Notes: generated by a model from the letters alone, not told the origin. 64,000 bases of DNA from GCF_054482525.1 NZ_CM137006.1, one strand, 5' to 3'; positions 10,609 to 59,757 are shown, counted from the first letter of the stretch. Numbers and translations are program-made.

Positions 10609-10858
10609 GTTTCATCTCCTGAGAGTCCAGGAAATCGTCCGCATCCCCTAACGGTCAAAAATCGTGGCGTTGATACAGGGGAAATCCGTAGTTTTTGATG
10701 CCAGCCATAACGTGTTTGACTATAAAGTATTACGAAAGGACTTTAATGAGCCCCTGGAATAATTCATTAAAGTAATTTACTTCGCTATCCTTTTCCCAGT
10801 TACTCACAAAGAAAAATATTCATAAAATAATTCCCGGGCTGGCAGCCCGGGATGATTA

Positions 10859-33440: not shown

Positions 33441-34296
33441 AGGTAAAGGGAGATGAAAAAGGCAATAGCAGAACTGAGTGACAGTGAAACCATTCTGGCG
33501 TACAGGGTTGGATGGTGAAACTGATAAAAAACCCCCTCTGAAATTCTGTCAGAGGGGCTAGTCAATAAGGGAATAATATTCAACATGAAGATGTCTTCTG
33601 GGAATGTTTATATAGCAAATGCTTTCACTCCGGTAATTAATTTCCGTGATTAACTGCTTTCGATCAATAAAGGAATTGCAAAAGTGTGATCTTGTTCACG
33701 ACATCGTGGATAATAATATGCCTGATGTCTGAATCCGGAAACAGTGCTCTGGCGGGTTTCATGTGAAGTTGACGGATAAAAAATCCGCACGACCAGACAG
33801 ACGTGCGGTTTACGAAATTCGTAACAAGAGGCTTTTCTACGGATCACGTGGTGCGTGCCACGTGAAATTTTTGTAGCGCAAAATGTGCAATGTGTAAATA
33901 CAAGGAAGGAAAAAAGTTAAATTGGTAGAAGTCCATGCCTGCCACATGTACGTCTGCATTCCTCGTTTTGAACAGAATTCTCACCAGACATCGTGAATTT
34001 CTCATTCAATCATCAGAGATATTAACCAGGATTTTTATTGTTTTGTGATATCAGCAGTGCAGGTATACAGACGTTAAAGTAATCAGGTTTATTATAACCA
34101 CCTTTACAAAGTTGTATATGTTTATAATTTAATGATTTTAATGCCAGTCGTTTTCTGCTGCTTAAATTGAGGTCGCATATTATACACAATAATATTCCTG
34201 GCATTATTAAATTAATAAAAGAGGATTCTTATCACTGTATTTTTGCTCCGCACTACCGTTCTGGCTGGTGAAGTAATAATACAGGAGAATAACAGA

Positions 34297-34863
34297 ATGC
34301 TTAAAAGACGTGATGCTTTTTTAAAGAAAAGCGCGCTGGCAGTGAGTGTGGCCCTGCTGCTCTCGGCTCAGGCTCAGGCTGTTTTGACAGGGCCTGTTGA
34401 TGCTAATTCTTCCAGCTTACTGATTGGAGAAAACTCTTTTATTACGAATTCAACTGGTACAGCTAATAACACTTTCCTTTTGGGAGGTGGCGCTTTTAAC
34501 ATGGATTCACCAGGAAGTCTTCAGTTTGGCTCTTTTTCGGGAGTGTATAATTCTCCACACAGTGTCACCCTGGGAAGGGATGCCGGTCAGGCTGAGTCAA
34601 AATATGGTGTTGCCATAGGTAAGAGCGCTGAGGTACTTAATTCACAGCAGAGTGTTGCTATTGGGGGATGGGCTGGAATAGAAAATTCTTCAGGCTCTGT
34701 AGCTCTGGGCCATGGCTCACAGGTGTCGGGAGAAAATAACGTGGTATCTGTTGGTGCCGGACCTGAGGGATATGGAGAGAGTGTCAAAGGAGCACCGGAA
34801 ACCCACTCTATTGTAAACAAGACATTTTTATCTTTTATATTCAATGGCTTATTTTCCTGCTAA
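34297..34863 (+). pseudogene. N-terminal fragment of a trimeric autotransporter (YadA-like) adhesin
   Basis: Signal peptide MLKRRDAFLKKSALAVSVALLLSAQAQA then head-type repeats (SVAIGGWAGIENSSGSVALGHGSQVSGENNVVSVGAG); ORF ends abruptly at the resistance-module junction. Confidence 0.55.
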
Positions 34864-35103
34864 TTGGTAATACCATGAAAAATACCATGCTCAGAAAAGG
34901 CTTAACAATATTTTGAAAAATTGCCTACTGAGCGCTGCCGCACAGCTCCATAGGCCGCTTTCCTGGCTTTGCTTCCAGATGTATGCTATTCTGCTCCTGC
35001 AGCTAATGGATCACCGCAAACAGGTTACTCGCCTGGGGATTCCCTTTCGACCCGAGCATCCGTATGAGACTCATGCTCGATTATTATTATTATAGAAGCC
35101 CCC

Positions 35104-35919
35104 ATGAATAAATCGCTCATCATTTTCGGCATCGTCAACATAACCTCGGACAGTTTCTCCGATGGAGGCCGGTATCTGGCGCCAGACGCAGCCATTGCGC
35201 AGGCGCGTAAGCTGATGGCCGAGGGGGCAGATGTGATCGACCTCGGTCCGGCATCCAGCAATCCCGACGCCGCGCCTGTTTCGTCCGACACAGAAATCGC
35301 GCGTATCGCGCCGGTGCTGGACGCGCTCAAGGCAGATGGCATTCCCGTCTCGCTCGACAGTTATCAACCCGCGACGCAAGCCTATGCCTTGTCGCGTGGT
35401 GTGGCCTATCTCAATGATATTCGCGGTTTTCCAGACGCTGCGTTCTATCCGCAATTGGCGAAATCATCTGCCAAACTCGTCGTTATGCATTCGGTGCAAG
35501 ACGGGCAGGCAGATCGGCGCGAGGCACCCGCTGGCGACATCATGGATCACATTGCGGCGTTCTTTGACGCGCGCATCGCGGCGCTGACGGGAGCCGGTAT
35601 CAAACGCAACCGCCTTGTCCTTGATCCCGGCATGGGGTTTTTTCTGGGGGCTGCTCCCGAAACCTCGCTCTCGGTGCTGGCGCGGTTCGATGAATTGCGG
35701 CTGCGCTTCGATTTGCCGGTGCTTCTGTCTGTTTCGCGCAAATCCTTTCTGCGCGCGCTCACAGGCCGTGGTCCGGGGGATGTCGGGGCCGCGACACTCG
35801 CTGCAGAGCTTGCCGCCGCCGCAGGTGGAGCTGACTTCATCCGCACACACGAGCCGCGCCCCTTGCGCGACGGGCTGGCGGTATTGGCGGCGCTGAAAGA
35901 AACCGCAAGAATTCGTTAA
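35104..35919 (+). CDS. sul2: sulfonamide-resistant dihydropteroate synthase Sul2
   Basis: 271-aa product matches Sul2 as I recall it. Confidence 0.95.
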   Translation: MNKSLIIFGIVNITSDSFSDGGRYLAPDAAIAQARKLMAEGADVIDLGPASSNPDAAPVSSDTEIARIAPVLDALKADGIPVSLDSYQPATQAYALSRGVAYLNDIRGFPDAAFYPQLAKSSAKLVVMHSVQDGQADRREAPAGDIMDHIAAFFDARIAALTGAGIKRNRLVLDPGMGFFLGAAPETSLSVLARFDELRLRFDLPVLLSVSRKSFLRALTGRGPGDVGAATLAAELAAAAGGADFIRTHEPRPLRDGLAVLAALKETARIR

Positions 35920-35979
35920 CTGCACATTCGGGATATTTCTCTATATTCGCGCTTCATCAGAAAACTGAAGGAACCTCCA

Positions 35980-36783
35980 TTGAATCGAACTAATATTTTT
36001 TTTGGTGAATCGCATTCTGACTGGTTGCCTGTCAGAGGCGGAGAATCTGGTGATTTTGTTTTTCGACGTGGTGACGGGCATGCCTTCGCGAAAATCGCAC
36101 CTGCTTCCCGCCGCGGTGAGCTCGCTGGAGAGCGTGACCGCCTCATTTGGCTCAAAGGTCGAGGTGTGGCTTGCCCCGAGGTCATCAACTGGCAGGAGGA
36201 ACAGGAGGGTGCATGCTTGGTGATAACGGCAATTCCGGGAGTACCGGCGGCTGATCTGTCTGGAGCGGATTTGCTCAAAGCGTGGCCGTCAATGGGGCAG
36301 CAACTTGGCGCTGTTCACAGCCTATCGGTTGATCAATGTCCGTTTGAGCGCAGGCTGTCGCGAATGTTCGGACGCGCCGTTGATGTGGTGTCCCGCAATG
36401 CCGTCAATCCCGACTTCTTACCGGACGAGGACAAGAGTACGCCGCAGCTCGATCTTTTGGCTCGTGTCGAACGAGAGCTACCGGTGCGGCTCGACCAAGA
36501 GCGCACCGATATGGTTGTTTGCCATGGTGATCCCTGCATGCCGAACTTCATGGTGGACCCTAAAACTCTTCAATGCACGGGTCTGATCGACCTTGGGCGG
36601 CTCGGAACAGCAGATCGCTATGCCGATTTGGCACTCATGATTGCTAACGCCGAAGAGAACTGGGCAGCGCCAGATGAAGCAGAGCGCGCCTTCGCTGTCC
36701 TATTCAATGTATTGGGGATCGAAGCCCCCGACCGCGAACGCCTTGCCTTCTATCTGCGATTGGACCCTCTGACTTGGGGTTGA
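35980..36783 (+). CDS. strA: aminoglycoside 3''-phosphotransferase APH(3'')-Ib (StrA); TTG start
   Basis: 267-aa product matches StrA; first codon is ttg at 35980. Confidence 0.95.
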   Translation: MNRTNIFFGESHSDWLPVRGGESGDFVFRRGDGHAFAKIAPASRRGELAGERDRLIWLKGRGVACPEVINWQEEQEGACLVITAIPGVPAADLSGADLLKAWPSMGQQLGAVHSLSVDQCPFERRLSRMFGRAVDVVSRNAVNPDFLPDEDKSTPQLDLLARVERELPVRLDQERTDMVVCHGDPCMPNFMVDPKTLQCTGLIDLGRLGTADRYADLALMIANAEENWAAPDEAERAFAVLFNVLGIEAPDRERLAFYLRLDPLTWG

Positions 36784-37619
36784 TGTTCATGCCGCCTGTT
36801 TTTCCTGCTCATTGGCACGTTTCGCAACCTGTTCTCATTGCGGACACCTTTTCCAGCCTCGTTTGGAAAGTTTCATTGCCAGACGGGACTCCTGCAATCG
36901 TCAAGGGATTGAAACCTATAGAAGACATTGCTGATGAACTGCGCGGGGCCGACTATCTGGTATGGCGCAATGGGAGGGGAGCAGTCCGGTTGCTCGGTCG
37001 TGAGAACAATCTGATGTTGCTCGAATATGCCGGGGAGCGAATGCTCTCTCACATCGTTGCCGAGCACGGCGACTACCAGGCGACCGAAATTGCAGCGGAA
37101 CTAATGGCGAAGCTGTATGCCGCATCTGAGGAACCCCTGCCTTCTGCCCTTCTCCCGATCCGGGATCGCTTTGCAGCTTTGTTTCAGCGGGCGCGCGATG
37201 ATCAAAACGCAGGTTGTCAAACTGACTACGTCCACGCGGCGATTATAGCCGATCAAATGATGAGCAATGCCTCGGAACTGCGTGGGCTACATGGCGATCT
37301 GCATCATGAAAACATCATGTTCTCCAGTCGCGGCTGGCTGGTGATAGATCCCGTCGGTCTGGTCGGTGAAGTGGGCTTTGGCGCCGCCAATATGTTCAAC
37401 GATCCGGCTGACAGAGACGACCTTTGTCTCGATCCTAGACGCATTGCACAGATGGCGGACGCATTCTCTCGTGCGCTGGACGTCGATCCGCGTCGCCTGC
37501 TCGACCAGGCGTACGCTTATGGGTGCCTTTCCGCAGCTTGGAACGCGGATGGAGAAGAGGAGCAACGCGATCTAGCTATCGCGGCCGCGATCAAGCAGGT
37601 GCGACAGACGTCATACTAG
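36783..37619 (+). CDS. strB: aminoglycoside 6-phosphotransferase APH(6)-Id (StrB)
   Basis: MFMPPVFPAHWHVSQPVLIADTF...; start overlaps strA stop (tgATG). Confidence 0.95.
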   Translation: MFMPPVFPAHWHVSQPVLIADTFSSLVWKVSLPDGTPAIVKGLKPIEDIADELRGADYLVWRNGRGAVRLLGRENNLMLLEYAGERMLSHIVAEHGDYQATEIAAELMAKLYAASEEPLPSALLPIRDRFAALFQRARDDQNAGCQTDYVHAAIIADQMMSNASELRGLHGDLHHENIMFSSRGWLVIDPVGLVGEVGFGAANMFNDPADRDDLCLDPRRIAQMADAFSRALDVDPRRLLDQAYAYGCLSAAWNADGEEEQRDLAIAAAIKQVRQTSY

Positions 37620-38198
37620 ATATCAAGCGACTTCTCCTATCCCCTGGGAACACATCAATCTCACCGGAGAATATCGCTGGCCAAAGCCTTAGCGTAGGAT
37701 TCCGCCCCTTCCCGCAAACGACCCCTGGAAGCCCCGTAGCGACGCGGAGAGGGGCGAGACAAGCCAAGGGCGCAGGCTCGATGCGCAGCACGACATAGCC
37801 GGTTCTCGCAAGGACGAGAATTTCCCTGCGGTGCCCCTCAAGTGTCAATGAAAGTTTCCAACGCGAGCCATTCGCGAGAGCCTTGAGTCCACGCTAGATC
37901 TATCTCATCTGCGCAAGGCAGAACGTGAAGACGGCCGCCCTGGACCTCGCCCGCGAGCGCCAGGCGCACGAGGCCGGCGCGCGGACCCGCGCCACGGCCC
38001 ACGAGCGGACGCCGCAGCAGGAGCGCCAGAAGGCCGCCAGAGAGGCCGAGCGCGGCCGTGAGGCTTGGACGCTAGGGCAGGGCATGAAAAAGCCCGTAGC
38101 GGGCTGCTACGGGCGTCTGACGCGGTGGAAAGGGGGAGGGGATGTTGTCTACATGGCTCTGCTGTAGTGAGTGGGTTGCGCTCCGGCAGCGGTCCTGA

Positions 38199-38849
38199 TC
38201 AATCGTCACCCTTTCTCGGTCCTTCAACGTTCCTGACAACGAGCCTCCTTTTCGCCAATCCATCGACAATCACCGCGAGTCCCTGCTCGAACGCTGCGTC
38301 CGGATCGGCTTCGTCGAAGGCGTCTATCGCGGCCCGCAACAGCGGCGAGAGCGGAGCCTGTTCAACGGTGCCGCCGCGCTCGCCGGCATCGCTGTCGCCG
38401 GCCTGCTCCTCAAGCACGGCCCCAACAGTGAAGTAGCTGATTGTCATCAGCGCATTGACGGCGTCCCCGGCCGAAAAACCCGCCTCGCAGAGGAAGCGAA
38501 GCTGCGCGTCGGCCGTTTCCATCTGCGGTGCGCCCGGTCGCGTGCCGGCATGGATGCGCGCGCCATCGCGGTAGGCGAGCAGCGCCTGCCTGAAGCTGCG
38601 GGCATTCCCGATCAGAAATGAGCGCCAGTCGTCGTCGGCTCTCGGCACCGAATGCGTATGATTCTCCGCCAGCATGGCTTCGGCCAGTGCGTCGAGCAGC
38701 GCCCGCTTGTTCCTGAAGTGCCAGTAAAGCGCCGGCTGCTGAACCCCCAACCGTTCCGCCAGTTTGCGTGTCGTCAGACCGTCTACGCCGACCTCGTTCA
38801 ACAGGTCCAGGGCGGCACGGATCACTGTATTCGGCTGCAACTTTGTCAT
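38199..38849 (-). CDS. tetR: tetracycline repressor TetR, class A
   Basis: MTKLQPNTVIRAALDLLNEVGVDGLTTRKLAERLGVQQPALYWHF...; start at internal Met of ORF 38199..38876. Confidence 0.9.
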   Translation of the reverse strand: MTKLQPNTVIRAALDLLNEVGVDGLTTRKLAERLGVQQPALYWHFRNKRALLDALAEAMLAENHTHSVPRADDDWRSFLIGNARSFRQALLAYRDGARIHAGTRPGAPQMETADAQLRFLCEAGFSAGDAVNALMTISYFTVGAVLEEQAGDSDAGERGGTVEQAPLSPLLRAAIDAFDEADPDAAFEQGLAVIVDGLAKRRLVVRNVEGPRKGDD

Positions 38850-38854
38850 GCTTG

Positions 38855-38907
38855 ACACTTTATCACTGATAAACATAATATGTCCACCAACTTATCAGTG
38901 ATAAAGA
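38855..38907. promoter_or_regulatory. tet operator palindromes in the tetR-tetA divergent promoter region
   Basis: actttatcactgataaaca and aacttatcagtgataaaga palindromes between the divergent genes. Confidence 0.7.
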
Positions 38908-38954
38908 ATCCGCGCGTTCAATCGGACCAGCGGAGGCTGGTCCGGAGGCCAGAC

Positions 38955-40154
38955 GTGAAACCCAACAGACCCCTGATCGTAATTCTGAGCACTGTCGCGC
39001 TCGACGCTGTCGGCATCGGCCTGATTATGCCGGTGCTGCCGGGCCTCCTGCGCGATCTGGTTCACTCGAACGACGTCACCGCCCACTATGGCATTCTGCT
39101 GGCGCTGTATGCGTTGATGCAATTTGCCTGCGCACCTGTGCTGGGCGCGCTGTCGGATCGTTTCGGGCGGCGGCCGGTCTTGCTCGTCTCGCTGGCCGGC
39201 GCTGCTGTCGACTACGCCATCATGGCGACGACGCCTTTCCTTTGGGTTCTCTATATCGGGCGGATCGTGGCCGGCATCACCGGGGCGACTGGGGCGGTAG
39301 CCGGCGCTTATATTGCCGATATCACTGATGGCGATGAGCGCGCGCGGCACTTCGGCTTCATGAGCGCCTGTTTCGGGTTCGGGATGGTCGCGGGACCTGT
39401 GCTCGGTGGGCTGATGGGCGGTTTCTCCCCCCACGCTCCGTTCTTCGCCGCGGCAGCCTTGAACGGCCTCAATTTCCTGACGGGCTGTTTCCTTTTGCCG
39501 GAGTCGCACAAAGGCGAACGCCGGCCGTTACGCCGGGAGGCTCTCAACCCGCTCGCTTCGTTCCGGTGGGCCCGGGGCATGACCGTCGTCGCCGCCCTGA
39601 TGGCGGTCTTCTTCATCATGCAACTTGTCGGACAGGTGCCGGCCGCGCTTTGGGTCATTTTCGGCGAGGATCGCTTTCACTGGGACGCGACCACGATCGG
39701 CATTTCGCTTGCCGCATTTGGCATTCTGCATTCACTCGCCCAGGCAATGATCACCGGCCCTGTAGCCGCCCGGCTCGGCGAAAGGCGGGCACTCATGCTC
39801 GGAATGATTGCCGACGGCACAGGCTACATCCTGCTTGCCTTCGCGACACGGGGATGGATGGCGTTCCCGATCATGGTCCTGCTTGCTTCGGGTGGCATCG
39901 GAATGCCGGCGCTGCAAGCAATGTTGTCCAGGCAGGTGGATGAGGAACGTCAGGGGCAGCTGCAAGGCTCACTGGCGGCGCTCACCAGCCTGACCTCGAT
40001 CGTCGGACCCCTCCTCTTCACGGCGATCTATGCGGCTTCTATAACAACGTGGAACGGGTGGGCATGGATTGCAGGCGCTGCCCTCTACTTGCTCTGCCTG
40101 CCGGCGCTGCGTCGCGGGCTTTGGAGAAATTCTTCAAATTCCCGTTGCACATAG
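38955..40154 (+). CDS. tetA: tetracycline efflux MFS transporter TetA, class A (GTG start)
   Basis: VKPNRPLIVILSTVALDAVGIGLIMPVLPGLL...; GGAGG 6 nt upstream of GTG at 38955; C-terminal tail may differ from the Tn1721 form. Confidence 0.85.
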   Translation: MKPNRPLIVILSTVALDAVGIGLIMPVLPGLLRDLVHSNDVTAHYGILLALYALMQFACAPVLGALSDRFGRRPVLLVSLAGAAVDYAIMATTPFLWVLYIGRIVAGITGATGAVAGAYIADITDGDERARHFGFMSACFGFGMVAGPVLGGLMGGFSPHAPFFAAAALNGLNFLTGCFLLPESHKGERRPLRREALNPLASFRWARGMTVVAALMAVFFIMQLVGQVPAALWVIFGEDRFHWDATTIGISLAAFGILHSLAQAMITGPVAARLGERRALMLGMIADGTGYILLAFATRGWMAFPIMVLLASGGIGMPALQAMLSRQVDEERQGQLQGSLAALTSLTSIVGPLLFTAIYAASITTWNGWAWIAGAALYLLCLPALRRGLWRNSSNSRCT

Positions 40155-40420
40155 CCCGGCAATTCCTTTCCCTGCTCTGCCATAAGCGCAGCGAATGCCG
40201 GGTAATACTCGTCAACGATCTGATAGAGAAGGGTTTGCTCGGGTCGGTGGCTCTGGTAACGACCAGTATCCCGATCCCGGCTGGCCGTCCTGGCCGCCAC
40301 ATGAGGCATGTTCCGCGTCCTTGCAATACTGTGTTTACATACAGTCTATCGCTTAGCGGAAAGTTCTTTTACCCTCAGCCGAAATGCCTGCCGTTGCTAG
40401 ACATTGCCAGCCAGTGCCCG

Positions 40421-40726
40421 TCACTCCGCGGTCTTCACTGCGTGATCGAGTTGATCGACACCCGCCGTGACACGCTCCATGAAGTGCCTGCCTGCGTCTG
40501 TTAGCCGAACGCCCCGCGCATGGCGCTCAAATAGCAGGACACCAAGGTTATCCTCCAGCGCTTTCACACGCGCGCTGACGCTCGACTGGCTGATACCAAG
40601 TGCCTTGGCCGCATGCCGAAAATTCAGATGCTCGGCGACGGCGATGAACTGAACAAGGGAAATGAGCGGTATCCTGCCAGACAGGATACCGACATTCACG
40701 AGGTTTCGATGGTTAGTGCGCCGCAT
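40421..40726 (-). pseudogene. truncated LysR-family regulator gene associated with floR
   Basis: 101-aa ORF with LysR-type HTH (HLNFRHAAKALGISQSSVSARVKALE) but lacking the effector domain. Confidence 0.7.
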
Positions 40727-40753
40727 CGGAGCGGGCCTGCTACCAGTCGTCGG

Positions 40754-41968
40754 TTAGACGACTGGCGACTTCTCGGTGGCAGCCCCACGGAGCCGAAGGA
40801 GCACCAGCCCCAACGAAACCAGTACCGCCATCGCCGTGGCGTAACAGATCACGGGCCACGCTGTGTCACCGTTTAAAAGTGCCACCGCCAATGTCCCGAC
40901 AATGCTGACTATCAGGCTTTGAACGCAGAAGTAGAACGCGACCGCTGATCCCGCGATGTCGTCGAACTCTGCCAAAGCGCCGTTCGCGGTAACGGACACC
41001 GTGAAGACAATACCGACCGCGACAACCCACATCGGTAGGATGAAGGTGAGGAATGACGGCGAGCCGTAAAGTTCGCCGATCCCCAACAGGACCGCTCCGC
41101 AAACAAGCAACGCCATCCCACGCGCCACGCATCCTGCGATGCCCCATCTGGCGACAAAGGACTTCGCGAAACGGGTTGTCACGATCATTACAAGCGCGAC
41201 AGTGGCGAAGGCAAAGCTGAATCCGATCTCGGAATATTCCGCTTGGCCTATGAGCACACGGGGAGCCGTCGAGAAGAAGACGAAGTAGGTGCCCATACCG
41301 GCGCTAAAGCCGACAGTGTAAACCCAAAAAGCCGGACTCGCGAAGATCGGCAAGACAGATCGGCGCGTCTTGACTTGATCCAGAGGGCGGGTTTCGTGCC
41401 ACCTGAAACCCGCATTTAGGAGTGCGAGCATCGCCAGTATAGCCAAAGTAATGAATATCGCCTGCCATCCCAAGAACTCGCCGATCAATGTTCCGGCGAT
41501 AGGGCCGAGCGCAGGCACGAACGCCAGCATCGAACTGAAAAGGCCGTAGATGACGACACCCTCAGGACGGTTGGCATAAACGTCGCGAACCGTCGCGAAC
41601 GTCGCCACCAGCATGGCCGACGCGCCCACTGCTTGAAGTAGACGGAAAGCGACAAAGGCCGGTGCAGTTGAAGACCAAGCTGCTCCCAGAGACGCAATGA
41701 CGAAAGCCGTTGCGCCCGCAAGTAGAATTGGCCGTCGCCCGATTCTGTCTGAGAGCGGACCAAAAATCACCTGGCCCACGCCGAGCATCACCATATAGAG
41801 GCTCAACGTGAGTTGGATCATAGCGGGCGTCGTGTTCAGGATGCCGGGCATCGCTGGAACGACAGGGAGATAAATATCCATCGCCAGTGAAGCGAGGATG
41901 TCGAAAGGAGCCATCAGCAGCAGTGCTGCCGGCAGCGTATAGGCCCACGCGGGGCGTGTGGTGGTCAT
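40754..41968 (-). CDS. floR: florfenicol/chloramphenicol efflux MFS transporter FloR
   Basis: 404-aa product matches FloR as recalled. Confidence 0.95.
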   Translation of the reverse strand: MTTTRPAWAYTLPAALLLMAPFDILASLAMDIYLPVVPAMPGILNTTPAMIQLTLSLYMVMLGVGQVIFGPLSDRIGRRPILLAGATAFVIASLGAAWSSTAPAFVAFRLLQAVGASAMLVATFATVRDVYANRPEGVVIYGLFSSMLAFVPALGPIAGTLIGEFLGWQAIFITLAILAMLALLNAGFRWHETRPLDQVKTRRSVLPIFASPAFWVYTVGFSAGMGTYFVFFSTAPRVLIGQAEYSEIGFSFAFATVALVMIVTTRFAKSFVARWGIAGCVARGMALLVCGAVLLGIGELYGSPSFLTFILPMWVVAVGIVFTVSVTANGALAEFDDIAGSAVAFYFCVQSLIVSIVGTLAVALLNGDTAWPVICYATAMAVLVSLGLVLLRLRGAATEKSPVV

Positions 41969-42184
41969 GACGAATCAACCCTCGATTAAGGAATACCGGG
42001 CGACGTCTGCTCGTCAGCAATCAGATGAGACTAGCCTTACAGAGCGCCGCAACAACAATACTGGTTGTTGCGGCTTACTTGTCTGCTGACTTGGAATTTC
42101 CCATCTGATTACTCCACGCTTACGAATATGAATTGCTACATTTTATCCGATTATCTTTTGCTTCGCAATGCGGCATGGGCGCAC

Positions 42185-43069
42185 TCAGCGTTCCAGCCCC
42201 CTCTGCCGCCCTAACTGCCACGACACCGACCCGCCCTGCACGATGCCCATAACCTCGCGGCCGAGTTGGCGGTCGATGATCGGCCGCCACGGGACAAGGG
42301 TGAACTCATGGGATTTCTCGACCACGGCGAACTTGCCGCTCGATAGATGCACGGTTCCGGTAAACTTGCCGCTGACGCTCTCGCCGTCCGTGGCGGCGCG
42401 GAACGGCAGGCCCTTACTCAAAGCCATATCCGATCCGACGCCGGCTACCTCGCGCTCCCGCAGGATGGCGAGAAGGTTGCGCCGGTAGAAGACGCGGCTG
42501 TCCCGGCTGCGGGTGGCGTCGCCCTGTTCGATATGGTGCTCGCGGCGCTGGTCCATGGCTTCGCGGACTTGTTGCCCGAAGCCGGTTGGCGCAAGGTCGG
42601 CCGTCTCGCCGTGGATCAGCCGCCGGTCCAGCCAGGTCGCGCCGTCCGATCCGATCTGTTTGTTCAGATCGACCGGGGAAAGGACGCGAACGCTGGCCTG
42701 ACTGTCTCGGCCGGCGTCATGGGCGGCGGCACGGCTGACCAGATCATTGGGGATGCGCCATTGGTCGGCGTCGATCCGCTCGACGATACCGGCCCGGCGT
42801 AGCGCCTCCAGCCGGCGCACATGGGCATCGACATAGCCCTCATAGTCGCCGCCTGGAACGCGGCACGTATAGGAAGAATAAACGCCCTTTTCACCCAAGT
42901 CCAACAGCTTTGGACCGCAGTTGACTCTTTCGACACCCCTGCGATGCAACCCAATCCGGCTGACGGGGAGCCAGCAACGCTGAAAATTTACCCTCCTCTT
43001 TCCCACTAGCGGCTCCTTTTCCGACAACCAGCACGGCGGATCCCTGCCGCGGCGCTGTGAACGCAGCAT
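42185..43069 (-). CDS. floR-associated hypothetical protein (often annotated VirD2-like)
   Basis: 294-aa GC-rich ORF between floR and the ISCR2 fragment, the position this gene occupies in floR cassettes. Confidence 0.55.
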   Translation of the reverse strand: MLRSQRRGRDPPCWLSEKEPLVGKRRVNFQRCWLPVSRIGLHRRGVERVNCGPKLLDLGEKGVYSSYTCRVPGGDYEGYVDAHVRRLEALRRAGIVERIDADQWRIPNDLVSRAAAHDAGRDSQASVRVLSPVDLNKQIGSDGATWLDRRLIHGETADLAPTGFGQQVREAMDQRREHHIEQGDATRSRDSRVFYRRNLLAILREREVAGVGSDMALSKGLPFRAATDGESVSGKFTGTVHLSSGKFAVVEKSHEFTLVPWRPIIDRQLGREVMGIVQGGSVSWQLGRQRGLER

Positions 43070-43099
43070 TTTGATTGGTATCGTTGGCCTTCAGGCTCG

Positions 43100-43753
43100 T
43101 CAGTCAAACAGACCCAGGAGCAGCTCAGCCGGTGGCGCCCGGCTTTCGGGTAACGCCCTGGTCCCGCTGGTTTCGGCTTTGTGCTTCAGGTGATCAAGGA
43201 TCTGCTTGATCACTATAGGGTCTTCAATGCAGGCGATGACTTTCATGGCGCCGCCGCAGCCGCTGCAGGTCTCGATGTCGATATTGAAAACACGCTTGAG
43301 CCGTTGCGCCCATGTCATCGACGCTCGCCGTTGTGCTGGTGTTGCCGGTTCATCAGCCACCCTGACCTTGTTGCCCCTGCCCCGTTTTGCCGGCGTGACC
43401 AACGCCCGGTGCCGACTGTTGGGTGCGAACACCCCGTGGAAGCGGGTTAGGTTGACTCTGGGCTTCGGTACCAGGGCGGCCAGCCTTGCAATGAAATCCA
43501 ATGGTTCGAAAATGACGTGCGTGGTGCCGTCCCGGTACGGCGTCTTGAGCTGGTAGCGCACGTTGCCGCCTCGTGTTAACGACAGCCGCTTCTCGGATAC
43601 CGCCGGGCGGCTGATGTACCGGCACAGCCGTTCGAGCTTCTTGCGTTCATCGGCCCTGGCCGCCACGCCGGCGTGCAGGCTGGACCCGGCTACCTTGCCA
43701 ATCCCGTCACCGAACGGATCACCACTGGTCGGCAGAGTTTGCAAAGTGAACAA
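43100..43753 (-). mobile_element. truncated ISCR2 (IS91-family rolling-circle transposase), C-terminal part only
   Basis: 217-aa ORF resembling the ISCR2 C-terminal half; N-terminal half absent, sequence changes to papI at ~43740. Confidence 0.65.
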
Positions 43754-43968
43754 CTCTGCCCCGCCTGCTTCTCTCCTTTCAGAAGCCAGTATGTTGCCAT
43801 GCCCCGTCTTAATGGTGAGCGCTGAACCATACCTGCTTTTTCCAGTAATAACAGGTAATAGCGGGCCTGGTAATCCGTTACCGCCAGCGCCTCCGCAATT
43901 TCTGCCGTTTTCCCTCCATCATGCCTGTTCAGAAATTCCAGTATTTCATTCTTCATATATTCACTCAT
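43738..43968 (-). CDS. papI: fimbrial regulatory protein PapI (3' end abuts the ISCR2 fragment)
   Basis: [61 protein letters not shown] matches PapI; ORF tail beyond ~77 codons is junction-derived. Confidence 0.8.
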
Positions 43969-44390
43969 CTCACTGTAACAAAGTTTCTTCGAATAATAAA
44001 AATCATGCTTTCTGTTATCAACGGAAAGGTATTTTTATTCTCTGTGTTTGCTGTGTTTGCTGTGTTTGCTTTATTTGTGCAATTTAGTGAATTTGCTTTT
44101 TATTTGCTTTATTTGATATGTATCACATTTTGCGTTTTATTTTTCTGTGAAAAGAAAGTCCGTAAAAATGCATTTAGACGATCTTTTATGCTGTAAATTC
44201 AATTTACTATGATGTTTTTATCTGAGCGCATTCTTATTATTAGTGTTTTATTCTAGTTTAATTTTATTTTGTGGGTTAAAAGATCGTTTAAATCAATATT
44301 TACAACATAAAAAACTAAATTTAACTTATTGCGTGAAGAGTATTTCCGGGCCGGAAGCATATATCCAGGGGCCCGACAGAAGGGGGAAAC
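43969..44390. promoter_or_regulatory. pap phase-variation switch region (papI-papB intergenic) with the two Dam GATC sites
   Basis: Only two GATC sites in the interval, at 44180-44183 and 44282-44285, 102 bp apart as in the pap switch; also a 9-bp triplicated repeat gtgtttgct at ~44041-44070. Confidence 0.7.
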
Positions 44391-44705
44391 ATGGCGCATC
44401 ATGAAGTCATCAGTCGGTCAGGAAATGCGTTTTTGCTGAATATACGCGAGAGCGTACTGTTGCCCGGCTCTATGTCTGAAATGCATTTTTTTTTACTGAT
44501 AGGTATTTCTTCTATTCACAGTGACAGGGTCATTCTGGCTATGAAGGACTATCTGGTAGGTGGGCACTCCCGTAAGGAGGTCTGCGAGAAATACCAGATG
44601 AATAATGGGTATTTCAGTACAACACTTGGGAGACTTATACGGCTGAATGCTCTTGCAGCAAGGCTTGCACCTTATTATACAGATGAGTCGTCGGCATTTG
44701 ACTGA
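44391..44705 (+). CDS. papB: fimbrial regulator PapB
   Basis: 104-aa ORF directly downstream of the switch region; PapB-like size and position. Confidence 0.8.
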   Translation: MAHHEVISRSGNAFLLNIRESVLLPGSMSEMHFFLLIGISSIHSDRVILAMKDYLVGGHSRKEVCEKYQMNNGYFSTTLGRLIRLNALAARLAPYYTDESSAFD

Positions 44706-44911
44706 ATGATGGCATTCCGGAGTTATCTTACAGATAAAAAGAAGTCCTTATCAGAAAGCAGACAGGTTATATCAGTATTCTGTCGATAAATAACCTGCCC
44801 TGAAAATACGAGAATATTATTTGTATTGATCTGGTTATTAAAGGTAATCGGGTCATTTTAAATTGCCAGATATCTCTGGTGTGTTCAGTAATGAAAAAGA
44901 GGTTGTTATTT

Positions 44912-45180
44912 ATGATTAAGTCGGTTATTGCCGGTGCGGTAGCTATGGCAGTGGTGTCTTTTGGTGTAAATGCTGCTCCAACTATTCCACAGGGGCAGGG
45001 TAAAGTAACTTTTAACGGAACTGTTGTTGATGCTCCATGCAGCATTTCTCAGAAATCAGCTGATCAGTCTATTGATTTTGGACAGCTTTCAAAAAGCTTC
45101 CTTGAGGCAGGAGGTACATCCAAGCCAATGGATTTAGATATTGAGTTAGTAAATTGCGATATTACAGCTTTTAAACAAGG
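44912..45180 (+). pseudogene. papA: major pilin papA, 5' fragment only
   Basis: MIKSVIAGAVAMAVVSFGVNAAPTIPQGQGKVTFNGTVVDAPCSIS... pilin N-terminus; pilin-like sequence ends at ~45177, where a perfect palindrome starts. Confidence 0.7.
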
Positions 45181-45189
45181 TCAAGCACT

Positions 45190-45235
45190 GATGAATCCCC
45201 TAATGATTTTTATCAAAATCATTAGGGGATTCATC
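45190..45235. repeat. perfect 21-bp inverted repeat (hairpin) at the papA truncation junction
   Basis: gatgaatcccctaatgatttt / tatc / aaaatcattaggggattcatc; no flanking T-run. Confidence 0.7.
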
Positions 45236-45583
45236 AGGACTCAGTATAAATCCAAGACAAAATCCCCCCGTGAATGCATTTAATAAAGACTTTAATGTTC
45301 TGTTAAAGGTGCGGATATAAAATGCATAAATAAAAGAAAGAGATCCGGTGATTATACCGGTGCAAAAATATGTTGTCCATTCAGGTACCGTATTTTGTAA
45401 AACAGTATAATGAGATATAGCGGATGCCCACAACATATACCAGCACAAACCACCTGTAATAAGATATGTTATTGCTGTGGAAAACCATTTCCTGTATTTA
45501 TTTTCAGGGTAATTGTTCTTGCCCATCAACGCATTTCCAGAATATTTAAAATAACCTGTCACCGAAACGGAATAAAGGCGCAA
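45200..45583 (-). CDS. hypothetical small membrane protein (127 aa)
   Basis: Hydrophobic segments (LITGGLCWYMLWASAI; GIITGSLSFIYAFYI; GGFCLGFIL); 42 bp downstream of the dGTPase gene on the same strand. Confidence 0.4.
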   Translation of the reverse strand: MRLYSVSVTGYFKYSGNALMGKNNYPENKYRKWFSTAITYLITGGLCWYMLWASAISHYTVLQNTVPEWTTYFCTGIITGSLSFIYAFYIRTFNRTLKSLLNAFTGGFCLGFILSPDESPNDFDKNH

Positions 45584-45625: not shown

Positions 45626-46858
45626 TTACTTCAGACAGTGAGTTTCCCATTCCTTGACTGCAAATGTATCCATCATACCTGAAATATAGTCAACCACTGC
45701 TCGTTTTTTGCTGATTTCAAATATACAGGAATCTGGTTGGGGTAAGGTGAATTTAAGTTCAGGAGGCAGAAATTTATAATTCTCTCCTTCATTGTAAAAG
45801 TCATATAAATCCCTGATTATTTTATTTCCCCTGAACTCATAGGTGAGGATATTACGTTTTCGCATGATGACTTTAAAGAGAAGTTTTTTGAGTCCTTCGG
45901 ATAACGCATTCAGTTTCCCGAACCCCAGTTCCTGAAAACCATTCAGGTTCGTTACTACAGAAATATCTGCAACGAGGCGATTGACAATATTTGAAGTTAA
46001 CTCCTTGCGGAATATGATGGCAAATTCTTCTGAGGTTTTCAGTAAGTTAGCCTGAAAAGCGGTGTTTCTCGACTGAGTAACGATTTCCCTGAACTGTTCC
46101 CTCGCTCCCCGGAATTCGTCAGAAATCTGAAACTCATATTCAATATCTTCAATCGTGACCATGTTCCTGCTAAGGGCATCTTCCAGGTCATGCGCGGCGT
46201 AGGCAATCTCATCCGCGAGATCCATTATCTGCGCATCAATCGTTTTCTCTCCGGGATTCAGATCGAGCTGATTTTCAGCAAGCAGGTTAATGTAAAAATA
46301 GTAATCATCATCATAAATGAACTTGCCGGCAGTAGCTGCAGCGCGGGGGATGGGATACTTAACAACCGAAAGTAAACTACGGTGAGTCAGATTTAATCCG
46401 TTGCAGTATGAAAATTTCTTCTCCAGTTTTCTCAGGATACGTAGCGCCTGTGCATTACCTTCATAGCCGCCGATTTCTTCAGACAGTTCATTAAGCAGTT
46501 TTTCACCGGAATGACCGAAAGGAGGATTTCCGATGTCATGCGCCAGCGCTGCCAGTTCAACCACCACCGGGTTAATCAGTTTGAGGTCTGACGCGATACT
46601 TCGGGCGATCTGAGCAACCTCAAGACTGTGCGTTAATCTGTTTCTGTTGAATTTTTCAGGATCAATTTCAAAAAGTTGCATCTTTCCCTGCAGCCTGCGA
46701 AATGATGATGAATACAGAATACGCGCGTAATCCCGTTGATAATTATCCCGGCTTCTTGTTTCACCATCGGGGGACGGGTGCTCTCTGGTATCAGCAAGCG
46801 CACTGATAAGTTTTTGTTCCTGCTCTTGCGCAAATTCTTTTAATTCATTGCAGTACAT
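45626..46858 (-). CDS. HD-domain dGTPase-like deoxynucleoside triphosphate triphosphohydrolase
   Basis: Motifs YQRDYARILYSSSFRRLQGKMQLF, RLTHSLEVAQIARSIA, LAHDIGNPPFGHSGE typical of Dgt-family enzymes; start at second Met (RBS-like AAGGAAG upstream); AT-rich. Confidence 0.75.
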   Translation of the reverse strand: MYCNELKEFAQEQEQKLISALADTREHPSPDGETRSRDNYQRDYARILYSSSFRRLQGKMQLFEIDPEKFNRNRLTHSLEVAQIARSIASDLKLINPVVVELAALAHDIGNPPFGHSGEKLLNELSEEIGGYEGNAQALRILRKLEKKFSYCNGLNLTHRSLLSVVKYPIPRAAATAGKFIYDDDYYFYINLLAENQLDLNPGEKTIDAQIMDLADEIAYAAHDLEDALSRNMVTIEDIEYEFQISDEFRGAREQFREIVTQSRNTAFQANLLKTSEEFAIIFRKELTSNIVNRLVADISVVTNLNGFQELGFGKLNALSEGLKKLLFKVIMRKRNILTYEFRGNKIIRDLYDFYNEGENYKFLPPELKFTLPQPDSCIFEISKKRAVVDYISGMMDTFAVKEWETHCLK

Positions 46859-47008
46859 ATTTCTTCCTTTCTGGAGCATGTTACCAAATCAGAATACCGG
46901 ATGAACAAAACTGGTGGCTACATCCTGTAGGGATTATGTATTAGTAAGCTCTGGCCATTAGTGCCATTTCAGGTTATGTGATCCTACCCACGTAATATGG
47001 ACACAGGC

Positions 47009-48337: not shown

Positions 48338-49318
48338 ATGACTCTTTTGGTAACGGCTGAGTGTGTTGACGATCTGATAAACGATGTTCATCAAGCTATC
48401 CTAGCGGATGGACTCAGTAACGATCCTACAAAAGGATCAACTCTAGAGATTCTTGGTGCCTATCTTGTCCTTACCGACCCCCGCCGAAGAATAAGTAGAA
48501 CAGAATCCCGAGGAAAACTAATTAGTTGCTTAGGTGAATTTCTGTGGTATCTCTCAGCTCAGAACGATCTTGAGTTTATAAAACACTTCATACCACGTTA
48601 CGCTGAATCCGCTGAGTCAGATGGGAAAATACATGGTGGTTACGGGCCACGGTTGTTTAATATGCGTGGTTTATATAATCAGCTAAAAAATGTTATCAAC
48701 CTTTTGCAGGAGAAAAAACCTACCAGACGTGCAGTAATACAGCTTTTCGATGCCTCAGACTTGGTGCCCTCAAAAACTGAACAGCGAGAATACGTAGATA
48801 TTCCTTGTACAATATCTATGCAGTTTATTGTCAGATGTGAAGAGCTGCATCTATTTGTTTGTATGCGTTCTAACGATGCCTTTATGGGGCTGCCTCATGA
48901 TGTATTTGCGTTCACGATGCTACAGGAATTAGTTGCCCGCTTGATAGGATGCGAATTGGGTCACTATCATCACTTTGTATCCAGCCTACATCTCTATAAA
49001 AATGATTTAGAAAAAGTGAAGGCTCTTCAGAAAGAGGGGTTCATGAGCACCCTACCAGTCATGGGATCGATGCCTGAAATGCATTCCTTAGATGATATCT
49101 TACCCCTGCTTGAGGCAGAAAAAGCTCTTCGAGAGAATAAGGAATTTGATATTGACACTACTTCCTTGAATGACTACTGGAAGGATTTATTGCGTATATT
49201 AAAAATCCACTTTTTGTTACGTTCACATACACCCAACCACAAAGGACTAGCCTTCCAAGAGTTGGCTGCAATGAAAAATCAGGAATATCGGTTTATTTTT
49301 GAAGGAAGACTACAATGA
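48338..49318 (+). CDS. thymidylate synthase-fold protein (ThyA / dNMP hydroxymethylase family) with ~90-aa C-terminal extension
   Basis: Aligns by eye to ThyA: GSTLEILGAYLVL, ISCLGEFLWYL, LYNQLKNVINLLQEKKPTRRAVIQLFDASDL, DIPCTISMQFIV (Cys at catalytic position), CMRSNDAFMGLPHDVFAF, HLYKNDL. Confidence 0.7.
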   Translation: MTLLVTAECVDDLINDVHQAILADGLSNDPTKGSTLEILGAYLVLTDPRRRISRTESRGKLISCLGEFLWYLSAQNDLEFIKHFIPRYAESAESDGKIHGGYGPRLFNMRGLYNQLKNVINLLQEKKPTRRAVIQLFDASDLVPSKTEQREYVDIPCTISMQFIVRCEELHLFVCMRSNDAFMGLPHDVFAFTMLQELVARLIGCELGHYHHFVSSLHLYKNDLEKVKALQKEGFMSTLPVMGSMPEMHSLDDILPLLEAEKALRENKEFDIDTTSLNDYWKDLLRILKIHFLLRSHTPNHKGLAFQELAAMKNQEYRFIFEGRLQ

Positions 49319-50259
49319 AAAGACATAATCAAATCAGTCAGCTGGTTAGTAATTTGCAAAATTTTAGCCGCAATGAACACAACCTAAATGGCCTAAGTTC
49401 TCCTGCCTGCTTTGATGTTTTAGCCTGTCAGATTATCGACAGTATACGTCGTATACGCTATGTGGAAACTCTTGCATTACGGACCGATTATATGACTCCG
49501 TTACGAAAAGAGCCGAATTCTGATGTTTTTGATCCTCTCCGCGCTGCCTGCCTTTATCTTCGTGACAACAATTACGATGAAGCCTGCTGGCTGGTTTTCC
49601 TTGCCACACATTTCGGCAAGAGTAACAAAACCGGCTGGATTTTGTGTCGAGATATATACAGTGGACTCGGTACACAAACGTGGACATGGGATACGATAAC
49701 TGATGACTTTGCTGCTTTTGAACAATGGTTCGCCAGCGTCTCTGATGAGTTGACAGCTAACAGTAGCCTAAGACAATATGGTAACCATCGGAAATATGAA
49801 ACGAAGAAATATCACTCTCGTCGTTCAATACCTGCGGTTTTTCGCTCTTACATCGGATTCATTGGTGCTACACACAGTCATGAGGCTAGGTTTGCAGAGG
49901 CCAAGAGCTTTTCATCTTCACCAGAATCTTTATTCGAACTATTGTATTCAGGGCTAAATGCCGTGATCTCATTTGGACGAACCGCAAAATTTGATTACCT
50001 AACTATGCTCAAGAAAACGGGACTTCTGGATGTAGAGCCGGGTCATGCTTTTCTGAATGGAGCAACCGGGCCCCTTCAAGGAAGCCGGCTACTTTTCAGC
50101 AATAGCCGGACTGCTGGTGACACAATAGACGTATTGAATGAAAAACTAGCTGACCTTGCGGCAATTATTCCTGCACCCTACTTGAGAATGCAGGTTATTG
50201 AAGATGCGTTGTGCAACTGGCAGAAATCACCTGACCGTTATGTCTATTTCGGCGGCTGA
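49315..50259 (+). CDS. uncharacterised protein co-operonic with the TS-fold gene
   Basis: 314-aa ORF overlapping upstream gene by 4 bp (ATGA); no motif I can assign. Confidence 0.5.
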   Translation: MKRHNQISQLVSNLQNFSRNEHNLNGLSSPACFDVLACQIIDSIRRIRYVETLALRTDYMTPLRKEPNSDVFDPLRAACLYLRDNNYDEACWLVFLATHFGKSNKTGWILCRDIYSGLGTQTWTWDTITDDFAAFEQWFASVSDELTANSSLRQYGNHRKYETKKYHSRRSIPAVFRSYIGFIGATHSHEARFAEAKSFSSSPESLFELLYSGLNAVISFGRTAKFDYLTMLKKTGLLDVEPGHAFLNGATGPLQGSRLLFSNSRTAGDTIDVLNEKLADLAAIIPAPYLRMQVIEDALCNWQKSPDRYVYFGG

Positions 50260-50261
50260 TA

Positions 50262-56912: not shown

Positions 56913-56975
56913 TACGCACATGACAAGCCCCGGCAGCGGGGCTTTTGTATTTAAAACAGGATATAAAAGCTAACA

Positions 56976-59749: not shown

Positions 59750-59757
59750 GGTTCATT

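Follow-up and report, generated by a model that had tools for sequence, protein, structure and literature searches.

Gene content and chromosomal setting

The window, a 64,000-nucleotide stretch of DNA, carries a plasmid-type resistance block of 8,951 bp (34802-43752) between a truncated YadA-like gene and papI. GC content is 55 to 65% in the block interior, compared with 34 to 46% in the flanks. Gene coordinates were taken from the RefSeq annotation of an identical chromosome, and gene intactness was judged with NCBIfam models on the basis of their curated bit-score cut-offs and a near-full-length match. The elements listed in the original prediction were all found where it had placed them. 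The features are as follows.

34297-34863, plus strand: chimeric adhesin ORF, 188 aa (169 native and 19 foreign codons)
34802-34804: crossover core, CCC on this strand and GGG on the opposite one, found in junction alignments both in the target gene and at the attR end of GIsul2
34802-35960, plus strand: GIsul2 right-hand end (attR arm, sul2 upstream region, sul2, and 41 bp downstream)
35104-35919, plus strand: sul2 (615 bits; cut-off, 575)
35961-42864: cargo segment, 6,904 bp, in place of the 288-bp GIsul2 glmM remnant
35980-36783, plus strand: strA/aph(3'')-Ib, full length (638 bits; cut-off, 600)
36783-37619, plus strand: strB/aph(6)-Id, full length (385 bits; cut-off, 325)
38199-38849, minus strand: tetR(A) (305 bits; cut-off, 265)
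38955-40154, plus strand: tetA(A) (891 bits; cut-off, 840)
40118-40428, minus strand: ISCR2 5' fragment (first 64 codons and upstream region), with terIS at 40410-40428
40421-40726, minus strand: lysR remnant, 101 aa, N-terminal HTH part alone
40754-41968, minus strand: floR, full length (899 bits; cut-off, 700)
42185-43069, minus strand: DUF3363 or "virD2-like" ORF, starting within the ISCR2 oriIS end
42865-43752, minus strand: ISCR2 3' part, 888 bp (last ~217 of 497 codons), with the oriIS end at 42865
43690-43968, minus strand: chimeric papI, 92 aa (native codons 1 to 74 and 18 codons from ISCR2 DNA)
43748-43752: ISCR2::papI joint at the 5-bp microhomology GAACA, from a three-way alignment of the window, intact papI (GN06758), and intact ISCR2
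44391-45187, plus strand: pap stump (intact papB, 44391-44705; 5' third of papA from 44912)
45188-45237: IS10 scar, 50 bp, two IS10 outer ends

All six resistance and regulatory proteins pass their NCBIfam cut-offs over essentially their full length, and since the six genes are intact, resistance to four drug classes should be expected: to sulfonamides via a drug-insensitive dihydropteroate synthase (Sul2), to streptomycin via the two phosphotransferases encoded by strA and strB, to tetracycline via Tet(A) efflux under the control of the TetR repressor, and to florfenicol and chloramphenicol via FloR efflux.

The host island is of the pheV type and lies in an Escherichia coli chromosome; in related genomes, the surrounding island DNA adjoins kps, yqgA, and speC. 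A 12-kb stretch was found at 100% identity in 125 complete E. coli chromosomes, and a 900-bp probe from the left flank matched 509 chromosomal places and no plasmid, so that the predicted chromosomal-island location holds and the window is not shown to be plasmid derived by its junctions. The block has a single att-type end and lacks a complete transposase as well as a complete integrase, and the window retains no genes for replication or transfer. The block is now passed on together with the chromosomal island. The cluster itself was already known (strain Sanji, reported in 2019); what is new is how the block probably arrived.

The left junction joins an adhesin gene to a GIsul2 end

Codons 1 to 169 of the chimeric adhesin ORF (34297-34804) encode the signal peptide, plus the head region, of a trimeric autotransporter adhesin that resembles YadA, and its final 19 codons come from the GIsul2 end. 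A BLASTP comparison with the intact 513-aa protein of EF5-18-41 gave 94% identity up to about residue 169, and DNA identity with the intact adhesin gene ends at 34804. The intact homologue has a YadA_anchor domain (residues 455 to 513) and a YadA_stalk domain, whereas the membrane anchor and coiled stalk are absent from the window ORF, the native part of which ends at residue 169. The window ORF is a gene fragment, and the predicted truncation is confirmed, with 169 of 513 native residues kept.

The first bases of the block, 34802-34818, read CCCACTCTATTGTAAAC, the attR arm of GIsul2 and the reverse complement of GTTTACAATAGAGTGGG, and the CCCACTC at the left end is the GIsul2 att core in reverse complement. 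At the attR end beside sul2, with core GAGTGGGA, the window has 7 of the 8 core bases, target DNA occupying the remaining position, the eighth; the adhesin-gene sequence at the proposed GIsul2 integration site is CCGGCGGGTTTCC. The same att core, together with reduced secondary cores (GGGA and TGGG), has been reported for GIsul2 (PMC9376610). The CCC/GGG core may mark an integrase-type junction and would point to integrase action, a 3-bp core being weak by itself. The exact core occurs once in the window, at 26500, an unrelated match at the level expected by chance; neither attL nor attLR was found in the window as a second att site, and terIS at 40410-40428 is without the left half of the attLR core.

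The segment from 34802 to 35960 is 99.8% identical to the GIsul2 of ABW_A19 and E19035. In all sampled rows of E. coli plasmid matches (out of 1,357 plasmid places overall), the homology has its edge at 34801/34802, and this left boundary is the same as the edge of ARI-B in the IncC plasmid p846.

The right junction and the pap stump

At the right end, the ISCR2::papI joint is 100% identical in 187 genomes, and a second shared stretch, GCCCCGCCTG, lies 5 to 6 nt from GAACA. It had been suggested that the insertion might affect papI integrity, and the 3' end is indeed altered; the change is slight, however, in that 74 of 77 residues are kept, all 74 identical to those of the intact 77-aa PapI, and an 18-residue tail read from ISCR2 stands in place of the final S-T-T and the stop codon. 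The change would matter little in any case, since papH to papG are missing and papA is cut short, leaving the pap operon as a stump. This stump is 99.4% identical to the intact GN06758 pap operon up to 45187, where it meets the IS10 scar; the position of the scar in papA is where sister strains carry Tn10 (tetB), and in L006 and L011 a full IS10 begins at the same base.

Remnants and cargo within the block

The ISCR2 5' fragment, which was missing from the list in the original prediction, abuts the lysR remnant and covers the final 37 nt of tetA. It is a duplicate match to the 5' end of the complete plasmid ISCR2, corresponds to positions 19 to 71 of 509 in the NCBIfam ISCR model, and carries a terIS motif located with 1 mismatch, compared with 0 expected by chance. 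The 3' part holds an ORF (43100-43762, minus strand) matching positions 293 to 508 of the same model and begins beside a sequence at 42866-42885 that we take to be oriIS from its likeness to the oriIS of ISCR1. A complete ~497-codon transposase gene between terIS and oriIS is absent from the block, ISCR2 being present as two separate pieces (about 310 bp and 888 bp), and the 3' part cannot encode a transposase. The lysR ORF covers positions ~5 to 86 of LysR-family models of roughly 300 positions. On its match to the C-terminal third of NCBIfam RlxS (positions 435 to 651 of 654; 220 bits, the cut-off being 850), the "virD2-like" ORF is a relaxase C-terminal remnant.

The cargo segment comprises strA, strB, a Tn5393 end, tetR(A), tetA(A), the ISCR2 5' fragment, the lysR remnant, floR, and the relaxase remnant. 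The Tn5393 end, directly after strB (37645-37725, minus strand), is presumably the terminal inverted repeat of that transposon, with the sequence GGGGTCGTTTGCGGGAAGGGG... An IS26 pseudo-compound transposon was considered and rejected, there being no IS26 end in the window (no match to the terminal repeat GGCACTGTTGCAAA with 1 mismatch allowed). The original prediction described the array as typical of plasmid resistance regions, and a coverage of 80% or more, at ~99.9% identity, is reached by 502 among the best 5,000 plasmid records. The IncC plasmid p846 and the IncY plasmid pfosA3 differ from the 8.95-kb block by two SNPs only (35592 and 37398).

Genomes that retain proposed intermediates

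Nine complete E. coli genomes carry a complete GIsul2 at the identical base of the same adhesin gene, each with a short cargo, the 288-bp glmM remnant. The insert, as in ABW_A19, measures 15,457 bp and has the 3-bp core at both ends; the GIsul2 backbone is present at this site in ABW_A19, E19035, 1517k, and CH4793. None of this backbone (tyrosine integrase, alpA, rep, trb, toxin-antitoxin, and ars genes) is in the window, which therefore carries a remnant and not the element. No genome was found with both a GIsul2 in the adhesin gene and a downstream papI.

A short form of the locus, in the sister genomes L006 and L011, consists of sul2, the glmM remnant, and a truncated ISCR2. Its right junction is 100% identical to that of the window (the long form), and its left flank differs by 1 SNP over the last 1 kb; across the short, long, PF9285, and GIsul2 forms, this last 1 kb contains only one SNP. 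The boundary at 42865 is common to the short-form, PF9285, and GIsul2 loci. The 6,904-bp cargo is absent at the short-form and GIsul2 loci, and at least three cargo versions occur with the same left junction. The 188-aa chimeric product (WP_000919994.1) is present in every sampled GIsul2-bearing, short-form, long-form, and PF9285-type locus except that of E15. The E15 copy of the chimeric ORF has a 6-bp indel. Identical flanks in a few sampled genomes make one origin for the left junction likely.

Comparison with known elements

GIsul2 and the CR2-sul2 unit were described by Nigro and Hall (2011) and Harmer et al. (2017), as cited in Zhang et al. (2022; PMC9376610), where GIsul2 is moved by its own integrase, low-specificity sites included, and CR2-sul2 units are excised and integrated via attLR and attR, often with other resistance genes aboard. 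The window resembles GIsul2 in its attR arm, sul2, and ISCR2/CR2 3' part (99.7 to 99.8% identity), with the junction in the att core, but it lacks the integrase, attL, attLR, the backbone, and half of ISCR2; moreover, the glmM remnant has been swapped for 6.9 kb of further resistance genes, and the site is an adhesin gene with a GGG core only rather than the 3' end of guaA. A CR2-sul2 unit has sul2, the glmM remnant, and a complete CR2/ISCR2 head-to-head, whereas the window is without the glmM remnant and its ISCR2 is split.

The gene order is that of ARI-B of IncC (A/C2) plasmids, in which sul2-strA-strB-tetR-tetA(A)-ISCR2 fragment-lysR remnant-floR-relaxase remnant-ISCR2 follow one another with the same internal junctions (99.94% identity over 8,966 bp to p846) and the left boundary falls at the GIsul2 end. 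In contrast, the window block lies in a chromosomal island, whereas ARI-B occupies the IncC backbone upstream of parA, and the outer ISCR2 of the block runs into papI after a cut at codon ~281, with no IS26 or resG beyond.

Two chromosomal loci of E. coli are directly related. The 8.9-kb cluster of ST167 strain Sanji (PMC6392093) is the same locus, and Sanji is among the 100% matches; its sul2, strAB, tetRA, and floR genes were reported within a 69.2-kb insertion common to six non-ST167 genomes, and the passages searched in that paper make no mention of ISCR2, papI, or the junctions. The floR-ISCR2-dfrA35-sul2 region of PF9285 (Wuthrich et al. 2019; PMC6506621) has the same left junction and chimeric ORF product; there, sul2 was reported to interrupt a "Tat pathway signal sequence protein," which is the adhesin gene of the window. 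PF9285 differs in its cargo (dfrA35 and a Tn21-like transposon) and in its right junction, where 1,119 nt of ISCR2 are fused to an hsdS gene.

Proposed origin of the block

From the junction sequences and the genomes retaining an intermediate, we propose that the block is a stranded, immobile GIsul2 remnant with later-acquired resistance cargo, a reading to which we assign a probability of about 0.82. A 15.46-kb GIsul2 would have integrated, via its own tyrosine integrase, into the YadA-like gene of a pheV-type island, using a secondary attachment site with the core reduced to GGG and splitting the adhesin gene. A deletion with one end within ISCR2 and the other at the 3' end of papI, sealed at the 5-bp microhomology, would then have stripped GIsul2 of its integrase and of its replication, transfer, and arsenic genes and have taken out some island DNA together with the 3' part of the adhesin gene, leaving sul2, the glmM remnant, and the ISCR2 3' part fused to papI. 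Finally, a sul2...ISCR2 region of the IncC ARI-B type on a plasmid would have recombined with the locus, the 288-bp glmM remnant giving way to the 6.9 kb carrying strAB, tetR-tetA(A), and floR; this swap was probably homologous recombination through sul2 and ISCR2, with crossovers in a 1.15-kb sul2 arm and a 0.89-kb ISCR2 arm, and it is parsimony only that argues for an exchange from the short to the long form.

The suggestion that a plasmid-type region was captured stands in part, as the inner 6.9 kb needs a plasmid-type donor, but capture from a plasmid in a single step is unlikely; the left end is a GIsul2 attR. A one-step event, in which the GIsul2 integrase inserted the whole 8.95-kb array as a CR2-sul2 unit with cargo, from a plasmid or a GIsul2 derivative, and the short sul2-glmM-ISCR2 form arose later by recombination, would draw on the reported attLR-attR mobility of such units with their frequent passengers (PMC9376610) and on the abundance of the array on plasmids. 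We consider it distinctly unlikely, given the nine genomes with a complete short-cargo GIsul2 at the same site and the extra replacement back to the glmM form that would be required; the ISCR2::papI deletion joint is, moreover, identical in the short and long forms, and the deletion is therefore older than their divergence. Rolling-circle transposition by ISCR2, with the junctions as the ends of a one-ended product, is very improbable: ISCR2 fragments, an oriIS end, and terIS are all present, and IS91-family elements have been proposed to mobilize neighboring DNA, but oriIS (42865) and terIS (40428) are internal and ISCR2 ends do not form either outer junction, the right one falling mid-transposase gene at a microhomology and the left one being the GIsul2 attR arm 300 bp past sul2. 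Deletion of rcr2, in addition, left mobility unaffected (PMC9376610).

The reading of the window as plasmid sequence or as an integrated plasmid has next to no probability left: the array is 99.9% identical to many plasmids, but comparison with known floR-tetA-strAB-sul2 regions showed this identity to end at 34802 and 43752, the surroundings are those of a pheV-type island without replication or transfer genes, and the flank matches and the 125 identical chromosomes refute this reading. A further question is whether GIsul2 inserted repeatedly and independently at one hot-spot base or once in an ancestor, with subsequent spread along with the island. Site-specific integration can repeat the same junction, and left-flank contexts vary among GIsul2-bearing genomes, CH4793 having intact transketolase genes; even so, recurrent insertion is unlikely in view of left flanks that show a single SNP over their last 1 kb across all four forms and of a papI microhomology joint that is not site specific and yet is the same in all 187 genomes.

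Under the stranded-remnant reading, 34802-40428, lying between attR-type and degenerate attL-type half-sites, might, as speculation, be excisable by a GIsul2 integrase acting in trans. We also tentatively suggest, at somewhat less than even odds, that the pheV-island adhesin gene is a natural docking site for GIsul2 and that the sul2 and ISCR2 arms serve as a landing pad for repeated swaps of plasmid cargo. If this is true, the resistance locus would move between lineages along with the island.

Location and composition of the resistance block

The GC-rich resistance segment at 34802 to 43752 (the block; 55 to 65% GC, versus 34 to 46% on either side) and its borders contain every item that the original prediction listed for 34297 to 43968, as judged from the RefSeq annotation of the identical E. 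coli chromosome W2-5. That annotation runs from a 188-amino-acid (aa) hypothetical open reading frame (ORF) through sul2, aph(3'')-Ib, aph(6)-Id, tetR(A), and tet(A) to an IS91-family fragment, a short LysR ORF, floR, a DUF3363 ORF, and a truncated ISCR2, and ends with a FaeA/PapI regulator, papB, and a partial papA. All six resistance and regulator genes are intact, and their proteins matched NCBIfam models over essentially full length and above the curated cutoffs. The lysR ORF holds only the N-terminal DNA-binding part, the ORF described as virD2-like matched a relaxase model in its last third only, and the ISCR2 ORF covers only positions 293 to 508 of the 509 in its model. A second ISCR2 piece, absent from the original list, lies between tetA and the lysR remnant:

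40118-40428, antisense to tetA(A): ISCR2 5' piece, comprising the first 64 codons and the upstream terIS (one of the two ISCR2 ends)

The tetA(A) ORF ends within this fragment: its final 37 nt (40118 to 40154), stop codon included, lie there, so that the C-terminal ~12 residues of Tet(A) come from ISCR2-derived DNA; with this ISCR2-encoded C terminus, Tet(A) still passed its NCBIfam cutoff.

Such an array is, as predicted, typical of plasmid resistance regions: among the best 5,000 plasmid records, 502, from E. coli, Klebsiella, and Salmonella, covered at least 80% of the query. The very high identity to plasmids is limited to 34798/34802 to 43767. The 12 kb from 33500 to 45500 were found with 100% identity over their whole length in 125 complete chromosomes of E. 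coli, whose sources were poultry, pigs, humans, a dog, a giant panda, and river water, and a 900-bp probe from the left flank had 509 chromosomal places and no plasmid place. Over its first 12.5 kb the window matches strain AH50 at 100%, and in AH50 this DNA adjoins kps capsule genes; the same island in a related genome ends at tRNA-Phe beside yqgA and speC. Because plasmid identity is confined to the block, and in view of the kps context in AH50 and the tRNA-Phe end, the window is identified as a chromosomal pheV-type island, in agreement with the chromosomal location originally proposed. A plasmid origin of the window was ruled out, as the flanks match chromosomes only. No tRNA gene that could anchor the island was found within the window; the pheV tRNA of related genomes is located beyond it.

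The island itself is a mosaic with a recombination break at its integrase gene (10859 to 12121). Positions 1 to 10844 hold IS100, MarR-family and AlpA-family genes, and IS3 remnants and match AH50 at 100%; W2-5 has a fimbrial operon in their place, and from 10845 on W2-5 and AH50 are ~99 to 100% identical. Upstream of the adhesin gene (the YadA-like trimeric autotransporter gene left of the block), a patch of ~85 bp (33532 to 33617) is highly divergent from strains O177:H21, FDAARGOS_1285, and PF9285, although the DNA to either side is near-identical to theirs; the patch may represent a variable element or a short tract of recombination. A defense gene cluster (45626 to 46879 and 53496 to 62276) lies to the right of the pap genes, with a dGTPase-family protein (PADLOC dGTPase, E value of 1e-109), a complete type I restriction-modification system (R, M, and S), and, beyond it, an AAA ATPase matching PDC-M55A, NsnB, and AriA with a 313-aa partner that had no match. 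A thymidylate synthase-like gene and a gene for a 314-aa hypothetical protein, adjoining the divergently oriented gene for a 360-aa XRE-family protein (PADLOC PD-Lambda-2_B, E value of 9e-30), may form a further defense module at 48338 to 51344.

Left junction

The window matches the intact adhesin gene up to 34804 and the IncC plasmid p846 from 34802 on, with the bases CCC in common. The homology ended at 34801/34802 in every row sampled from 1,357 plasmid places in E. coli genomes, and this identical stop marks a fixed element end. From 34802 the window reads CCCACTCTATTGTAAAC; reverse-complemented, this is the attR arm and core (GAGTGGGA) of GIsul2, an integrative element that has its own tyrosine integrase, with sul2-glmM-CR2 at one end and attR as the sul2-side end. 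These att sites serve the GIsul2 integrase for excision and integration of GIsul2 as well as of the sul2-glmM-CR2 end unit, and reduced cores occur, GGGA in IncC plasmids and TGGG in assays (Zhang et al. 2022, PMC9376610). The exact att core had a single match elsewhere in the window, at 26500, which is at chance level and unrelated.

A search with the intact adhesin gene as the query led to strain ABW_A19, which matched the 3' part of the gene only, from the exact junction base. Its gene order is the 188-aa chimeric ORF also present in the window, sul2, a glmM remnant, complete ISCR2, resG, an ars operon, a toxin gene, trbJKL, repC, repA, an HTH gene, a tyrosine integrase, and the 3' part of the adhesin gene. 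The insert measures 15,457 bp and has a 3-bp core at each end:

Adhesin-gene target around the junction, putative attB: ATAATCCGGCGGGTTTCCGGTGC
Target, GIsul2 strand: CCGGC-GGG-TTTCC
attL side, GIsul2 strand: CCGGC-GGG-AATGATTCC
attR side, GIsul2 strand: CAATAGAGT-GGG-TTTCC

The attL-side junction in this gene occurs in nine complete genomes, four of which were inspected. From the junction sequences and the presence of whole GIsul2 at this site in nine genomes, the left junction of the window is identified as the attR junction of GIsul2 at a secondary site. Capture of a plasmid-type region, as originally proposed, is thus unlikely to have been a single step, and only the inner 6.9 kb call for a plasmid-type donor. 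The autotransporter gene is truncated, as had been noted: the left ORF keeps codons 1 to 169, and the YadA stalk and C-terminal YadA anchor of the intact 513-aa adhesin of strain EF5-18-41 are both gone. In PF9285, sul2 interrupts the same gene, annotated there as a Tat-signal protein (Wuthrich et al., PMC6506621). Our literature search found no link between GIsul2 and YadA, the adhesin gene, or pheV.

Inside the block, the lysR remnant meets the ISCR2 5' fragment (40410 to 40428) at the position of the GIsul2 attLR core, and only ...GCGGAGTGACGGG is left there of ...GAGTGGGAGTGACGGG. This arrangement fits a published proposal in which "terIS" boundaries result from the integrase and are not ISCR2 ends.

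Right junction and proposed cargo exchange

Identity to complete ISCR2 extends to 43752 and identity to intact papI begins at 43748, so that the ISCR2 fragment does run into the 3' end of papI, with an overlap of GAACA; the two sequences also share GCCCCGCCTG a few bases from the joint. Since the joint falls midway through the ISCR2 gene rather than where an element ends, and shows the GAACA overlap, it is best read as marking a deletion joined by microhomology. Compared with the genomes that carry GIsul2, the window would have lost the remainder of that element, including 841 nt from the start of the ISCR2 gene, together with the 3' part of the adhesin gene and a stretch of island DNA as far as papI. 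An ancestor with GIsul2 in the adhesin gene and papI downstream was not found: four of the nine GIsul2-bearing genomes, followed for 16 to 20 kb downstream, had no pap genes there, nor did EF5-18-41 in the ~11 kb downstream of its intact adhesin gene.

Two other mechanisms were rejected. No IS26 terminal repeat lies within the window, which argues against involvement of IS26, and the ends of ISCR2 cannot be the outer boundaries, as its oriIS-like end (42865) and terIS (40428) are internal and the right junction is inside the ISCR2 gene.

The deletion joint recurs in strains O177:H21 and FDAARGOS_1285, which encode the same two junction ORF products; in these strains nothing but sul2, the glmM remnant, and a truncated ISCR2 lies in between (the short form). 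To the right they match the window at 100% over 42865 to 45224, and the last 1 kb of their left flank differs by one single nucleotide polymorphism (SNP). In place of 288 bp of the short form and GIsul2, the window (the long form) has 6,904 bp (35961 to 42864), and two SNPs over 8.95 kb separate the block from the copies on IncC and IncY plasmids. In the simplest reading, homologous recombination with a plasmid-borne array of the ARI-B type (the resistance island of IncC plasmids) would have brought in the 6,904-bp cargo, with crossovers in the sul2 arm (34802 to about 35951) and the ISCR2 arm (42865 to 43747). Because both forms have the deletion joint and GIsul2 itself has the short cargo, the deletion would have come first and the exchange second, an order that is suggested rather than proven. 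A third cargo version, in PF9285 (dfrA35, floR, and a Tn21-like transposon), has the same left junction and a different right junction; nothing in the window matches its right flank (hsdS and sucrose genes), so we rejected a nested deletion of the same island and assign PF9285 a separate history to the right of sul2.

Among 5,426 complete E. coli genomes, the left junction was found in 230 (~4%), the ISCR2::papI junction in 187, the long form with both flanks in 125 (~2%), and whole GIsul2 at the adhesin-gene site in 9.

Consequences for papI and the pap operon

The original concern about papI integrity holds for the 3' end of the gene, where 18 codons of ISCR2 DNA in another frame stand in place of the stop codon and the final three residues; residues 1 to 74 are identical to those of the intact 77-aa PapI of strain GN06758. 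Little consequence for pap biology is expected, since the operon is already cut to papI', an intact papB, and a papA that ends after about 90 codons (~a third), with papH to papG absent. The regulatory region between papI and papB contains three tandem copies of gtgtttgct (44030 to 44070), with a 9-bp indel relative to O177:H21. A 50-bp near-palindrome at 45188 to 45237 consists of two IS10 outer ends and has the appearance of a nearly precise excision scar; at the same papA position, O177:H21 and FDAARGOS_1285 carry Tn10 with tetB. As the 9 bp flanking the scar differ (GGTCAAGCA versus GACTCAGTA), an IS10-mediated rearrangement, and not simple insertion and excision, joined papA to the DNA beyond.

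Mobility and significance

Neither a complete ISCR2 nor any GIsul2-type integrase or backbone gene is present in the window, which also lacks an IS26 end and a second intact att site; its sole integrase gene is that of the island. Given these absences, the block should be immobile by itself and be inherited with the island. The locus can spread across sequence types with a genomic island, as noted in the genome paper on strain Sanji, which describes this 8.9-kb chromosomal cluster within a 69.2-kb insertion that six non-ST167 genomes share (PMC6392093).

The functions of the gene products are well known: Sul2 acts as a dihydropteroate synthase that sulfonamides do not inhibit, streptomycin is phosphorylated by APH(3'')-Ib and APH(6)-Id, TetR controls the efflux pump TetA(A), and FloR exports florfenicol and chloramphenicol. 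As predicted from its genes, about 2% of complete E. coli genomes (125/5,426) thus carry a four-class resistance module without any plasmid, and because the module is chromosomal, its resistances would not be removed by plasmid curing or loss.

The locus is ordinary in that the cluster and the left junction had been published in outline and GIsul2, the CR2-sul2 unit, and ARI-B are established; the reconstruction that ties GIsul2 to the adhesin gene refines known biology and is not a new kind of system. The original observation was confirmed, and its interpretation stands in part. Our comparisons support the published view (PMC9376610) that sul2/ISCR2 boundaries arise from the GIsul2 integrase and not from ISCR2 transposition. 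Public genomes hold a natural series from the empty gene through whole GIsul2 and the deleted stump to the stump with new cargo, and this series, as reconstructed from sequence, shows a modest but clean route by which an integrase-borne element may become a fixed chromosomal platform.
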